4,093 nt of DNA. Origin: a virus. Lineage: Duplodnaviria > Heunggongvirae > Uroviricota > Caudoviricetes. The translations under genes and the position numbers were made by a program. The notes under the pieces were generated by a model, which was given only the letters and a program-made list of their open reading frames with translations, had not been told where the DNA came from and did not search any database. Of this stretch, positions 1,219 to 4,093 are shown piece after piece (position 1 is the first letter of the stretch; each line of letters starts with the position of its first letter). The stretch lies in the IMG/VR virus record IMGVR_UViG_2541047427_000008. One strand, given 5' to 3'.

Positions 1219-1532
1219 GTGGCTGGAAGAAGTGGCGCTGGGCTGAAATCCTGATACTCCGGCAGTGTGCGGGAACGATGAGAGTCGAAAGCATCGGTTA
1301 TCTGATTGGCCGTAGTGAGTCAGCCGTCAGGACGAAAGCGCGGGAACTGGGTATCAGCATGATGTTACGGGGTGATTATCACCAGTCAGCCAAATGTTCA
1401 CAGCGTGATATTGAGCTGGCGTGGCAACTGCATCAGCGTGGTGTACCCCGACGGGAAATTGCCGAAAAGTTTGGGATGAAGTTGGGCGCAGTGAATAACT
1501 ACGTTTATTTCGACAGGAGGGTTCAGGAGTGA
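1215..1532 (+). CDS. Small protein with two helix-turn-helix motifs (putative DNA-binding regulator)
   Basis: In-frame GTG at 1215 overlaps the upstream stop (GTGA at 1215-1218), suggesting translational coupling; alternative ATG start at 1278. Motifs [21 protein letters not shown] and [18 protein letters not shown] resemble sigma-70 region 4 / LuxR-type HTH. The part of the track ORF upstream of 1215 overlaps the previous gene and is probably not translated. Confidence 0.65.
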
Positions 1533-1831
1533 GGGTGAGGGTTTATATCGCCGGTCCGATGACGGGATATGAAAATTTTAACCGCGAGGCATTTCACAAA
1601 ACGGAAGAGGTGCTGAAACGGGAAGGGCATACCGTTTTAAACCCGGCAGTACTTCCGGACGGGCTGACTCAGCCACACTACATGGATATTTGCATGGCAA
1701 TGCTCCGTTGCGTGGATGCGGTTTACATGCTGAAAGGCTGGCAGCAGTCGGCAGGTGCAGGGGCTGAGCTGGCACTGGAGGAGAAACCGGGCCATGCGGT
1801 GATTTTTCAGGAGGTGGGCAGTGAATATTGA
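1529..1831 (+). CDS. DUF4406 / nucleoside 2-deoxyribosyltransferase-like protein
   Basis: GTG at 1529 overlaps the upstream TGA (1530-1532); alternative GTG at 1535 with GGAG at 1526-1529. N-terminal VYIAGPMTGYENFNREAFHKTEEVLKREGHTVLNPA matches the family hallmark as I recall it. 100 aa. Confidence 0.8.
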   Translation: MRVRVYIAGPMTGYENFNREAFHKTEEVLKREGHTVLNPAVLPDGLTQPHYMDICMAMLRCVDAVYMLKGWQQSAGAGAELALEEKPGHAVIFQEVGSEY

Positions 1832-2138
1832 CCCGGCGATAACGATTGATATGGCCCTGAACGCCGGCCTGGCACTTCTTGGTTATTTCTACATTATGTT
1901 CTGCAGCGGACGATGGCTGTCACTGTTGTTCATGAAAAAATGGAATAAACGCCGTAAGCAGGAGCAACGCCAGAAGGCAATGGATGCATTTTTCGAAGCC
2001 TTCGGAATTGACGGCATGGAACCAGGGGATCCAGCTCGCGCAATCAGCAGAGGGGGTGTAGTAATCCTTGTATATCGGAGTGAAGAGAAAAATGACGATC
2101 ACAAAACAACGTGTAGAAGAAATCATATCCCGCATTGA
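1821..2138 (+). CDS. Small membrane protein: one N-terminal transmembrane helix followed by a basic segment
   Basis: GTG at 1821 with GGAGG at 1809-1813 (7-nt spacing), overlapping the upstream gene end by 11 nt. Hydrophobic ITIDMALNAGLALLGYFYIMFCSGRWLSLLF followed by KKWNKRRKQEQRQK. The 3' part overlaps the next gene, so true extent is uncertain. Confidence 0.5.
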   Translation: MNIDPAITIDMALNAGLALLGYFYIMFCSGRWLSLLFMKKWNKRRKQEQRQKAMDAFFEAFGIDGMEPGDPARAISRGGVVILVYRSEEKNDDHKTTCRRNHIPH

Positions 2139-2409
2139 AATGTATGGACATGGTGCAGGGTATATCGCAGACGAGGTTAATGATCTGGCTATACTGGCGC
2201 TGAATTTATCAAATATCGCGAACCTGAAGCGATACGAGCTTGATATGGGAGGTTGCGACTCGTGCGGTCAGGATTGTGGCGCTGATATGACTGAAGATCC
2301 TGATGGTGATTATGTCCTGTTTGATGACGTGGTTAAGTTGTTTGAATTTGATACAACCACTCAAAAGTTAGAAATCCCGGCAAAGGAGGCAGCCAGTGGG
2401 CAAGATTGA
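2092..2409 (+). CDS. Hypothetical strongly acidic protein with a C-x2-C-x3-C motif
   Basis: ATG at 2092 (MTITKQRVEE...); the track start at 2068 is a TTG, and an ATG at 2140 is an alternative. About 22 Asp/Glu versus about 8 Lys/Arg in 105 aa by my hand count. Motif CDSCGQDCG. Ends at TGA 2407-2409. No family recognised. Confidence 0.6.
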   Translation: MTITKQRVEEIISRIEMYGHGAGYIADEVNDLAILALNLSNIANLKRYELDMGGCDSCGQDCGADMTEDPDGDYVLFDDVVKLFEFDTTTQKLEIPAKEAASGQD

Positions 2410-2833
2410 CTATCAGGCACTGCGTGAGGCAGCACAAAACTATCAATCGACGCTGGCGTGGTATCAGGCTACCCCGGACAGCCCAAATGCTGAACGGGAT
2501 TGTGATGCGGCTCTTGCTGCGTTTAAGCGTCACATCCGTCATCGGGAAGCGGATATTATCGCTGATTTGCTGGATGGACTGGAAGAAGCAAAATCACAAC
2601 TCAACGAGCAGCGTGAGTATTACGAAGGCGTTATCTCTGATGGGAGCAAGCGTATTGCTGAACTGGAAGCGCGGGAAGTTCAATTACCGACTCGCTACGA
2701 CCTTCGATATGGACACCCGATAAATGCAGATGAGCGACATGTCATGATACCTAAAGAAAATGGCAGTTGGCTTTACCTGATTGACCTAGAACACGCATTA
2801 CGCGTCGCTGGCATTCGCATCAAAGGAGAGTGA
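2396..2833 (+). CDS. Hypothetical protein with a central coiled-coil-like segment
   Basis: GTG at 2396 with AAGGAGG at 2383-2389 (6-nt spacing), overlapping the upstream gene by 14 nt. 145 aa with heptad-like IADLLDGLEEAKSQLNEQREYYEGV...RIAELEAREVQL. Faint resemblance to Ead/Ea22-like prophage proteins, not assertable. Confidence 0.65.
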   Translation: MGKIDYQALREAAQNYQSTLAWYQATPDSPNAERDCDAALAAFKRHIRHREADIIADLLDGLEEAKSQLNEQREYYEGVISDGSKRIAELEAREVQLPTRYDLRYGHPINADERHVMIPKENGSWLYLIDLEHALRVAGIRIKGE

Positions 2834-2834
2834 G

Positions 2835-3026
2835 ATGAACGGACAAATATCAATTGTTCGACCAGGAGCATGTGACGATCGCGAAATACGAATGATTATT
2901 CGTCTGGCGATGGGGAAAACAATAACTGCTCTCATTACTCCAGAAAATCTCGCATTAGCATTAACAGGAAAGTCAGACATGCCAGTAGAGCTAAAGCTGC
3001 GAAATGTTGAGATTAAGGTGAAATAG
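2835..3026 (+). CDS. Hypothetical small protein (63 aa)
   Basis: ATG at 2835 one base after the upstream stop (TGAGATG), with AAGGAGAG at 2822-2829. Ends at TAG 3024-3026. The overlapping - strand ORF 2798-3070 has no start context and antisense-like composition. Confidence 0.55.
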   Translation: MNGQISIVRPGACDDREIRMIIRLAMGKTITALITPENLALALTGKSDMPVELKLRNVEIKVK

Positions 3027-3028
3027 CT

Positions 3029-3586
3029 ATGACCACTATTACCAAAGATCGACTGCTGACAATCCAGCATTGGCGCGAAACATACGGACCGGGTAGCAAC
3101 GTTGTGCTTCCAGCAGAAGAAGCGGAAGAGCTGGCACGGATTGCGCTGGCATCACTGGCAGCAGTATCGGATGAACGAGCAGCCTATGAATTATTTATGG
3201 AGAAGCGTTTCGGAGAATCTGTAGATCGCCGCAGAGCAAAAAATGGCGATAGAGAATACATGGCATGGGATATGGCGCTTGGCTGGATTATCTGGTGTCA
3301 CCGCGCCGCCATGCTTCAGGCTGGAAACTTTCGGGAAAATAAGGGTTCGTCAACCAATAATTTTCGGATAATCTCGGAAACGTCAACCAACTCTCCGGCA
3401 ATCCCTGATGAGGTGTTGTCCGCAATCCTGAAGGTCGCCAGGCTTCGTGCAGATTTCGATGCTTCTGAAGTGGACAGGCGAGGTATCGGTAGTTGTCTGG
3501 ATGAGGCCGAGCAAGAACTTATCGTTACCATTAACGAATACGCCAGTCAGATCGCAGTAGAAGCGACACAGGGGGAGAACCAATGA
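3029..3586 (+). CDS. Hypothetical protein (185 aa)
   Basis: ATG at 3029 two bases after the upstream TAG, with AAGGTGA at 3013-3019 as a possible ribosome-binding site. Contains an internal imperfect tandem repeat. Ends at TGA 3584-3586. No family recognised. Confidence 0.65.
   Translation: MTTITKDRLLTIQHWRETYGPGSNVVLPAEEAEELARIALASLAAVSDERAAYELFMEKRFGESVDRRRAKNGDREYMAWDMALGWIIWCHRAAMLQAGNFRENKGSSTNNFRIISETSTNSPAIPDEVLSAILKVARLRADFDASEVDRRGIGSCLDEAEQELIVTINEYASQIAVEATQGENQ
3326..3391 (+). repeat. Imperfect tandem direct repeat of 2 x 33 bp inside the 3029-3586 CDS
   Basis: Units 3326-3358 and 3359-3391 match at about 22 of 33 positions by hand alignment, each ending in an identical CGTCAACCAA (3348-3357 and 3381-3390). 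Confidence 0.5.
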
Positions 3587-3660
3587 GCCGGCCAGATGCA
3601 TTTGCAGGCGTTGCTATAGCTATTGCTTTTCTAGTATATGTTATTTGTCGGTGGGGGTAA
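3583..3660 (+). CDS. Putative 25-aa hydrophobic mini-protein (MSRPDAFAGVAIAIAFLVYVICRWG)
   Basis: ATG at 3583 overlaps the upstream stop (ATGA at 3583-3586), preceded by GGGGGAG at about 3572-3578. Single hydrophobic stretch; stop TAA 3658-3660. Not in the ORF track, presumably below its length cutoff. Short ORFs arise by chance, so this is tentative. Confidence 0.35.
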   Translation: MSRPDAFAGVAIAIAFLVYVICRWG

Positions 3661-3695: not shown

Positions 3696-3800
3696 ATGTC
3701 GGATGATATTTCACTGGTAATGGAAGGCGCTCTGGCTGTTATTGCTGTTGTGGGTGTTTACTGCCTGGTTGTGTTTTTGATGGAGCGCCTGGGGAACTGA
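3696..3800 (+). CDS. Putative 34-aa single-pass membrane peptide (MSDDISLVMEGALAVIAVVGVYCLVVFLMERLGN)
   Basis: ATG at 3696 preceded by AAGGGAGGG at 3684-3692 (about 4-nt spacing). Acidic N-terminus then a roughly 20-residue hydrophobic helix; stop TGA 3798-3800. Not in the ORF track. Confidence 0.45.
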   Translation: MSDDISLVMEGALAVIAVVGVYCLVVFLMERLGN

Positions 3801-3874: not shown

Positions 3875-4043
3875 GGGTGCTTGAGGCTGTCTGCCTCGGG
3901 CATGCCACCGTAAGGCAGACAGAGAAAAGCCCCAGTTAACATTACGCGTCCTGCAAGACGCCTAACATTAATCTGAGGCCAATTTCATGCTAGACACATG
4001 TAGGTTAGCCTCTTACGCGCCGAAAGGCAAGGAGAAGCAGGCT
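3875..4043 (+). other. Structured 5' leader of the hok-like mRNA, including a 10-bp stem and a mok-like upstream start
   Basis: Inverted repeat CTGTCTGCCT (3887-3896) / AGGCAGACAG (3913-3922) with a 16-nt loop. Downstream blocks AGCCTCTTACGCGCC and GCAAGGAGAAGCAGGCTATGAAG resemble hok-family leaders. ATG at 3987 with GAGG at 3975-3978 is in frame with the hok ATG. Confidence 0.55.
3930..3995 (-). ncRNA. sok: Predicted Sok-like antisense RNA (antitoxin of a type I toxin-antitoxin pair)
   Basis: By analogy with R1 hok/sok. Minus-strand promoter-like elements: -35 TTGCCT (complement of 4025-4030), 17-bp spacer, -10 TAACCT (complement of 4002-4007). Transcript would cover the mok-like start region. 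A short hairpin GCGTC-N6-GACGC is present, but ends are guessed and no clean terminator is seen. Confidence 0.35.
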
Positions 4044-4093
4044 ATGAAGCAGCAAAAGGCGATGTTAATCGCCCTGATCGTCATCTGTATTAC
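4044..4093 (+). CDS. hokD: Hok/Gef-family type I toxin, HokD/RelF-like; first 16 codons only, truncated by window end
   Basis: ATG at 4044 preceded by AAGGAGAAG at 4029-4037. Translation MKQQKAMLIALIVICI matches the HokD/RelF N-terminus as I recall it (MKQQKAMLIALIVICLTVIV...). Confidence 0.85.
   Translation, partial: MKQQKAMLIALIVICI

Follow-up and report, generated by a model that had tools for sequence, protein, structure and literature searches.

The ea/exo-xis and nin regions of lambdoid and P22-like phages, including those of E. coli O157:H7 prophages, are crowded with mosaic genes of unknown function. Among the described proteins, Ea22 of lambda and the Stx phages has been reported to be pro-lysogenic (PMC7093339, PMC10834534), tetrameric and mosaic (PMC10834534), and its C-terminal domains, which are acidic and interchangeable, have been proposed as ligands for unknown host proteins (PMC10834534). 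HK446 gp27 (Oad2) has been reported to bind and inhibit the P2 OLD defence protein directly, and has been described as a relative of P22 EaE that is sometimes fused to EaD/Ea22 (bioRxiv 10.64898/2026.07.10.737580).

The protein described here, 105 aa in length, is encoded in a window of 4,093 nucleotides (the whole stretch of DNA analysed, an IMG/VR record of the Caudoviricetes). It shares the genomic niche of the Ead/Ea22-like proteins, namely the ea/exo-xis or nin accessory regions, together with their mosaic build. A subset of these proteins (P0148 and P0167) bears one of its two modules, designated module B below, as a C-terminal head, and natural fusions between the two protein types exist; it differs from them in having neither a PF13935 match nor a long coiled coil. 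Oad2, likewise a small acidic protein (pI 4.8), comes from the same mosaic pool and from the same cluster of ea-region genes. Like Ocr (PF08684) and ArdA, which are small acidic (pI ~4) accessory proteins of phages or plasmids, it fits a pattern of early expression, but it is predicted to consist of a helical hairpin, a small beta domain and a disordered tail, and has no sequence, profile or fold similarity to either. Overall, its gene is one of the early accessory genes that make up the EaE/Ead/Ea22 mosaic pool in enterobacterial phages.

Gene model, composition and distribution

The coding sequence spans positions 2092–2409 on the + strand, stop codon included, and its translation gives 105 aa followed by a stop codon. 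A mechanical ORF list began the same frame at an upstream TTG (position 2068, 113 aa). The ATG at 2092 was preferred because RefSeq/PGAP calls the identical gene model from this ATG to the stop (WP_000156547.1, 'hypothetical protein') and because MTITKQR forms the N-terminus of every homologue.

The translation contains 13 Asp and 9 Glu against 5 Lys and 3 Arg, that is 22 acidic and 8 basic residues, exactly as counted by hand in a first-pass annotation made from the nucleotide sequence. That annotation had described a strongly acidic 105-aa protein with a CDSCGQDCG motif and a very acidic C-terminal half. The coordinates and motif were borne out by the translation and the RefSeq gene model, with cysteines at residues 55, 58 and 62 and the motif at residues 55–63, and the C-terminal half holds 14 acidic and 3 basic residues. 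The net charge is approximately −14, the pI 4.11 and the share of acidic residues 21 %, making this the most acidic of the nine ORFs in the window. The earlier characterization as a small acidic phage protein of an accessory region was thus correct.

Comparison with the homologues of Sf101, PhiR12_1 and KFS-SE2 gave dN/dS values of 0.11–0.26; these derive from an ungapped alignment, which a one-codon deletion throws out of register for Vi II-E1, so that the values involving that phage are invalid. The ORF is a real gene under purifying selection. It was present in 533 of 5426 complete E. coli genomes, where the annotation was always 'hypothetical protein', and in 46–60 phage records. Homologues were found both in the P22-like phages Sf101 and PhiR12_1 and in siphophages of ~45 kb (Vi II-E1, KFS-SE2, seszw, LPST10 and others). 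An integrase or repressor is annotated in none of the 87 features of KFS-SE2, which nevertheless carries the gene, and a lysogeny-specific role is therefore unlikely. A word-indexed protein search returned 248 relatives, of which the best 120 were 77–99 % identical to the query. The literature was searched for the accession, the PHROG number and the motif and sequence strings, and nothing was found; the protein was likewise absent from the text and supplements of two accessory-gene screens.

Genomic neighbourhood

The window is 99.4 % identical to a lambdoid prophage of E. coli O157:H7 that is integrated beside potC/potD-cobB. On the + strand, replication protein P is followed by a DUF1627 gene, a small gene, the DUF4406 and DUF4752 genes and the gene studied here, after which come an Ead/Ea22-like gene, a 63-aa ORF, a 185-aa mosaic ORF, small hydrophobic ORFs and hok/sok. 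The small gene between the DUF1627 and DUF4406 genes had weak helix-turn-helix (HTH) matches.

Both immediate neighbours overlap the gene. The 3′ end of the DUF4752 gene (1821–2138, + strand), its usual upstream neighbour in E. coli prophages, covers its first 47 nt, and the Ead/Ea22-like gene (2396–2833, + strand), which starts with GTG, covers its last 14 nt. The product of the latter matched the Pfam Ead_Ea22 model with an E-value of 2.2e-13 and 51.4 bits against a cut-off of 27. A gene of this type is the usual downstream neighbour in E. coli genomes and also in PhiR12_1. Further downstream, the 185-aa ORF (3029–3586, + strand) is a mosaic paralogue that starts with the same N-terminal module (31 % identity, E 2e-5). 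Promoter- and terminator-like sites in the window did not exceed the frequency seen in shuffled sequence, and on the + strand the gene is flanked by no such site, so that it reads as part of one early operon.

The leftward early operon of Sf101 and PhiR12_1 carries the homologue in its ea region, with abc/anti-RecBCD on one side and int on the other. The genes adjoining the homologue in PhiR12_1 are annotated as Ea22, EaA or EaE, and their counterparts in Sf101 are annotated as hypothetical only. The 'eae protein' of PhiR12_1, located ~300 nt upstream of the homologue, is 65 % identical to Oad2.

Family and structure searches

The first-pass annotation had recognized no family for this protein, and this holds for the curated collections. 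No match was found in Pfam or NCBIfam (both E≤1), zero families were matched among the anti-phage defence models of PADLOC-DB (E≤0.01), and the PDB sequence profile search (E≤10) was also negative. As no Pfam family was matched at E≤1, the protein is not a member of Ead_Ea22 (PF13935), and the zinc-ribbon and zinc-knuckle families of Pfam were likewise unmatched at this threshold. The profile-HMM check that the annotation had proposed thus gave no confident match to a family of known function. The statement does not extend to PHROGs v4, where the protein is a full-length member of phrog_3126 (E 2.5e-66, residues 1–105 on profile positions 1–105 of 105), a family with no assigned function, domain description or structure; the Vi II-E1 homologue matched the same HMM with an E-value of 1.6e-57. 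Nor does it extend to the second half of the protein, which is a recurrent, unannotated phage domain.

A relationship to Lar/RalR was considered on the basis of weak 'Lar-like' PHROG matches and was rejected by hhalign. The matches belonged to the genes upstream of the homologues in Vi II-E1 and KFS-SE2, and the module-B profile aligned with E. coli K-12 RalR over one column (E 0.24).

The structure prediction that had also been proposed was carried out with AlphaFold2. An alignment of 20 close homologues gave an unusable model (pLDDT 46.9), and one of 49 sequences that included diverse module-B homologues gave a model of moderate confidence (pLDDT 72.7, pTM 0.49). The predicted elements are helices at residues 5–18 and 26–43, a strand at 47–51, the Cys loop, a strand at 65–68, a turn with a short strand, a helix at 77–87 and a disordered tail from about 88 to 105. 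The model had no fold match among solved structures in the PDB. It lacks the long central coiled coil that characterizes Ead/Ea22 proteins, having instead two short helices, a small beta unit and one 11-residue helix. The structure of the C-terminal domain of lambda Ea22 has been solved by NMR; for this protein the missing fold match is to be read with the qualification that the searched libraries may lack its NMR entry. A comparison of module B with lambda Ea22 also gave no match, a result to which we attach no weight.

Two-module architecture

An exhaustive profile search of 1.84 billion representatives gave 124 matches, which fell into three classes covering the whole profile, positions ~1–40 only or positions ~41–88 only. 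Judged from these alignments, the protein is made up of two independently occurring modules and a tail. One of the matches, in a protein of 2824 aa (P0180), was rejected as a compositional artefact of acidic DPDGN repeats.

Module A (residues 1–43; 2092–2220, + strand) is a predicted helical hairpin formed by the helices at 5–18 and 26–43, with the pattern MTITKQRVEEII..G.G....E..DLA.LAL. Mosaic prophage proteins of the DUF551 type and of other kinds begin with it too, among them P0192, in which module A is joined to DUF551. The DUF551 mosaic proteins, represented by the 185-aa ORF of the window and its RefSeq relatives, thus share module A with the protein studied here, which has no DUF551 domain itself.

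Module B (residues 44–88; 2221–2355, + strand) is a domain that recurs in phage proteins and for which Pfam has no model. It comprises the strand RYELD, the Cys-bracketed acidic loop, the strand DMTE, the turn DPDG, the segment DYVL and the helix FDDVVKLFEFD, and follows the pattern LKRYELDM.GCDS[CF]GQDCGADM.ED.DGDYVLFDDV..L. Its 45 residues include 13 of the 22 acidic residues of the whole protein. Module B recurs in several arrangements. It forms the C-terminus of the Pfam-confirmed Ead_Ea22 coiled-coil proteins P0148 and P0167, it follows module A in proteins whose C-terminal part is DUF551 (P0157 and P0173) or a dATP/dGTP pyrophosphohydrolase domain (P0165), and it occurs as stand-alone proteins of 60–97 aa (P0226, P0227, P0231, P0233 and P0237). 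A divergent branch carries GGHCDSFGQDCGAEM (P0189, P0201, P0207 and P0216), and module B is also found in small phage proteins of other Proteobacteria. The divergent GGHCDSFGQDCGAEM branch was seen in an Aeromonas phage as well, and two of the stand-alone homologues were located among small ORFs on metagenomic contigs with phage-type replication or nuclease genes.

A Cys-poor variant of module B with a shorter loop forms the N-terminal copy in P0196. In Vi II-E1 and KFS-SE2, the homologue is overlapped by an EaE/Oad2-related gene that begins with a variant of this kind; hhalign aligned module B with these N-termini at probabilities of 85 % and 73 %, respectively. At the C-terminus of the Ea22-like protein encoded in the window, module B aligned in the same register with a weak score (hhalign E 0.002, probability 14 %), and the likeness there is only suggestive.

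The C-terminal tail (residues 89–105; 2356–2406, + strand) is predicted to be disordered, with pLDDT <50. In longer relatives of 142–205 aa, differing C-terminal cassettes are joined at residue ~97 (the TPATDAFLAEVRAQ... junction), and one of these relatives, P0035, carries the C-terminal module of Sf101_0023, a cassette of EaE/Oad2 type, with 91 % identity over 86 aa. In P0121 and P0135 the whole protein is fused in frame to an Ead_Ea22 protein. The modules are therefore shared and recombined among the accessory genes of these phages.

The relationship to Oad2 was found to follow the same pattern. Longer variants of the protein share a 'TPATDAFLAEVRAQ...LRKG' C-terminal cassette with Oad2, which the 105-aa form lacks; one such variant, P0007, matched Oad2 with an E-value of 2e-9, mostly via this cassette. 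The Oad2 relatives of Vi II-E1 and KFS-SE2 begin with a hairpin resembling module B and overlap the homologue of the present gene, and the Vi II-E1 relative (VIP0050) is 39 % identical to Oad2 (E 2e-12). Homology to Oad2 itself was rejected both for the 105-aa protein (BLASTP E 0.52) and for module B (hhalign of the module-B profile, E 0.52). The link to Oad2 is one of shared context and shared cassettes only.

Proposed role

Oad2 and the role proposed for the Ea22 C-terminal domains are the analogies from which we infer that this soluble product of the early operon could well bind another protein stoichiometrically, although we place this somewhat short of an even chance. In such a mechanism module B, with its rigidified acidic loop, would recognize a protein either of the host or of a co-resident mobile element, and module A would serve in scaffolding or oligomerization. 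This would lead to host takeover or counter-defence; neither DNA mimicry nor the control of lysogeny as such would be at work. An anti-defence role is plausible from the EaE/Ead/Ea22 and Oad2 context, and this part of the first-pass proposal gains contextual support because the mosaic pool includes Oad2 as a reported inhibitor of OLD.

A bolder extension, which we regard as rather unlikely, is that module B may be an undescribed, widely distributed and exchangeable target-recognition head, carried on Ea22/EaE scaffolds or free, whose Cys-stapled acidic loop would bind and thereby neutralize one particular bacterial protein of immunity or DNA repair. The consensus of such a head is L-[KR]-R-Y-[DE]-L ... 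C-x6-C ... M-x-E-D-x-D-G-[DE]-Y-V-x-[FLW]-D-D-V. The readings weighed below are not all mutually exclusive.

Cysteine loop and the metal or redox reading

The CDSCGQDCG loop (residues 55–63; 2254–2280, + strand) had been read as a C-x2-C-x3-C cluster suggestive of metal binding. This pattern is present in the protein but is not conserved. Among 198 unique module-B sequences, a sample biased towards enterobacterial relatives, C55 was kept in 180 and C62 in 182, and position 58 was Cys in 111 and Phe in 62 (~31 %), the Phe variants including the close phage homologues of Sf101 and PhiR12_1. Because position 58 varies, the conserved feature is a C-x6-C bracket around an acidic loop rather than a three-Cys cluster, and the metal-cluster idea is weakened since only two cysteines are conserved.

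A small metal-binding or redox-sensing protein, in which the acidic Cys loop binds Zn, Fe or another cation, is an unlikely reading on this evidence. It could take the form of a site at a dimer interface to which each chain contributes two cysteines, or of a reversible disulfide that switches activity. The near-invariance of C55 and C62 across the Cys-type family speaks for such a role, as do the conserved carboxylates that flank the cysteines and the recurrence of the C-x6-C spacing in the distant stand-alone homologues P0226, P0227 and P0237. In addition, the exo-xis region has been reported to be linked to the oxidative-stress induction of Stx prophages (PMC4699033). Against these points, each chain offers just two conserved cysteines, the third being Phe in ~31 % of unique sequences, so the four conserved Cys/His ligands per site of a zinc ribbon or knuckle are not found; with two ligands per chain, this is not a mononuclear zinc site. 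No conserved histidine partner was seen, H20 lying in module A and being lost in P0050, and the absence of any match to zinc-ribbon or zinc-knuckle families or to RalR/Lar argues in the same direction. The N-terminal copy in P0196, Vi II-E1 VIP0050 and KFS-SE2 gp43 provide Cys-less versions of the module, which shows that the module-B fold has no need of a metal. A site shared across a dimer or a disulfide staple is possible in the Cys-bracketed loop.

Association with the downstream Ea22-like protein

The protein might instead be a partner subunit that assembles with the coiled-coil tetramer of the downstream Ea22-like protein and biases the lysis–lysogeny decision in the manner reported for Ea22 of lambda and the Stx phages. 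The 14-nt overlap with the start of the Ea22-like gene, the regular occurrence of such a gene downstream in E. coli genomes and PhiR12_1, the in-frame fusions P0121 and P0135 and the pro-lysogenic role reported for Ea22 (PMC7093339, PMC10834534) are consistent with this arrangement. The overlap is less telling in that overlapping genes are common throughout these operons. Furthermore, the downstream Ea22-like protein ends in different domains in different contexts, so that no fixed partner surface is evident, an Ea22-like gene does not follow the homologue in Vi II-E1 or KFS-SE2, and KFS-SE2 has no annotated lysogeny module. We give this reading the same low probability as the metal or redox one.

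Acidity and the DNA-mimic reading

The candidate function put forward in the first-pass annotation was that of a DNA-mimic anti-restriction protein, which, like Ocr or ArdA, would present an acidic surface resembling the DNA backbone and thereby tie up type I restriction–modification, BREX or other DNA-binding defence enzymes. The composition of the protein (21 % acidic residues, net charge −14, pI 4.1) is in keeping with this, as is its presence in the accessory regions of temperate phages and of phages without an annotated lysogeny module. Against a background of 186 annotated CDS from five related phage loci, its acidity stands out without being unique. Nine of the 186 have a net charge of −0.13 per residue or lower, and three of these nine are the protein and two orthologues, which places it in the most acidic ~5 % of CDS in these related phages. 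The same acidic tail of the distribution holds KFS-SE2 gp78 and HK446 gp36, both annotated as 'anti-restriction protein', and the use of acidity as a guide therefore has some base-rate merit. Kinship with these two proteins was rejected, since the sequences are unrelated to that of the present protein.

Beyond composition, the DNA-mimic reading found no support and lost ground. Neither the Pfam Ocr model (PF08684) nor any other Pfam model was matched at E≤1, whereas T7 Ocr as a positive control matched its own Pfam model with an E-value of 1.3e-64. There was no PDB sequence match and no fold match, solved DNA mimics included. DNA mimics have diverse folds, and the missing fold match does not for that reason exclude mimicry. 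With a net charge of −0.13 per residue, the protein is about half as densely charged as Ocr (−0.24), and the acidity is concentrated in one 45-residue hairpin domain and not spread along an elongated surface. In other proteins, moreover, module B is an interchangeable head on coiled coils. Strong acidity (pI 4.1) would suit nucleic-acid mimicry or cation binding just as well as the proposed protein-binding role. We consider DNA mimicry distinctly improbable here.

It is very improbable that the gene has no function and is simply the N-terminal piece of a larger mosaic gene that recombination left behind. Although many relatives are longer (142–205 aa) with different cassettes joined at residue ~97 and the last 17 residues are predicted to be disordered, relatives take the stand-alone form of 100–105 aa more often than any other (562 member sequences on 628 contigs in the P0002 cluster alone), and the gene is under purifying selection and is kept in phages with compact genomes.

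Implications

The present work amounts to the annotation of a hypothetical protein and not to the discovery of a function. It provides a better description of a mosaic Ea-type accessory protein and delineates a recurrent 45-residue domain within it. This domain, with its two conserved cysteines and no Pfam model, is a concrete unit that lends itself to testing. If the protein inhibits a defence system, the inhibitor would be one that is carried by about 10 % of complete E. coli genomes. The capping of coiled coils by module B suggests that Ea22-type proteins may be scaffolds bearing exchangeable binding heads. If the exchangeable-head reading were true, the EaE/Ead/Ea22 mosaic would be a combinatorial counter-defence toolkit, of which Oad2 acting against OLD would be the first solved case.

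Module sharing and possible fusions around the acidic protein

The acidic 105-aa protein (window 2092–2409, +; the target) is followed by an Ea22-like gene with a GTG start (window 2396–2833, +), whose product matched Pfam Ead_Ea22 in its N-terminal part and ends in the residues AGIRIKGE. The C-terminus of this product (PTRYDLRYGH..HVMIPKENGSWLYLIDLEHAL) aligned in register, and weakly, with module B, the acidic residues 44–88 of the target with their Cys-bracketed loop (hhalign E 0.002, probability 14 %). The same product also matched MucB_RseB in Pfam, at 23.6 bits versus a cut-off of 22.3, and this match is probably spurious. In the window, the target and Ea22-like genes occupy separate frames and overlap by 14 nt. 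In two relatives of the target from public assemblies, P0121 (278 aa) and P0135 (307 aa), the entire target was joined in frame to the downstream Ead/Ea22-like protein. These fusions could be genuine or else could represent assembly or frameshift artefacts.

Module A, the predicted helical hairpin formed by residues 1–43 of the target, was also found at the N-terminus of a 185-aa ORF (window 3029–3586, +), with 31 % identity between the two copies (E 2e-5). After module A, and in register with module B, this ORF has a basic stretch without Cys. RefSeq relatives of the ORF, with a gene of 588 nt, are labelled 'DUF551 domain-containing', and the window version had no match to Pfam DUF551. The alignment of the window to its best genome matches was split into two pieces, with 95 % covered.

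Relatives of Oad2, and proteins annotated as anti-restriction

Two genes overlapping target homologues in siphophages, VIP0050 of Vi II-E1 (L006:3465–3884) and gp43 of KFS-SE2 (L007:3429–3881), were identified as relatives of Oad2/EaE, Oad2 being the EaE-type HK446 gp27 reported to inhibit the OLD defence protein. VIP0050 had 39 % identity to this OLD inhibitor (E 2e-12), and in both VIP0050 and gp43 the first ~40 residues form a variant of module B that is poor in Cys. Both also had weak PHROG matches to 'Lar-like restriction alleviation', a link that was not supported when module B was compared directly with RalR.

Two small acidic proteins are annotated 'anti-restriction protein', namely KFS-SE2 gp78 (L011:44931–45191; net charge −19 in 86 aa) and HK446 gp36 (L009:11412–11660; −11 in 82 aa). 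One of the two exceeds the target in acidity and the other equals it. Neither had a Pfam family above threshold or similarity to the target in sequence comparison.

Other features of the window

Downstream of the 185-aa gene lie two very short hydrophobic ORFs that could encode membrane peptides. The first, of 25 aa (window 3583–3660, +; MSRPDAFAGVAIAIAFLVYVICRWG), has a start that overlaps the stop of that gene, and the second is of 34 aa (window 3697–3800, +; RefSeq WP_001278450.1). A hok/sok type I toxin–antitoxin locus occupies the window end (3875–4093, +), comprising an Rfam sok RNA match (RF01794, 3875–4049, 116.9 bits) and a hokD CDS that starts at ~4044 (beginning MKQQKAMLIALIVICI) and has its 3′ part beyond the window end.

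The 63-aa basic ORF at window 2835–3026 (+; phrog_1222) weakly matched a PHROG with the annotation DNA methyltransferase, at the C-terminal end of that family (E 5.9e-6). The DUF4406 protein (window 1529–1831, +) matched phrog_355, annotated 'nucleoside 2-deoxyribosyltransferase' (E 4.2e-43), and may be a nucleotide-metabolism enzyme inside the accessory gene string.
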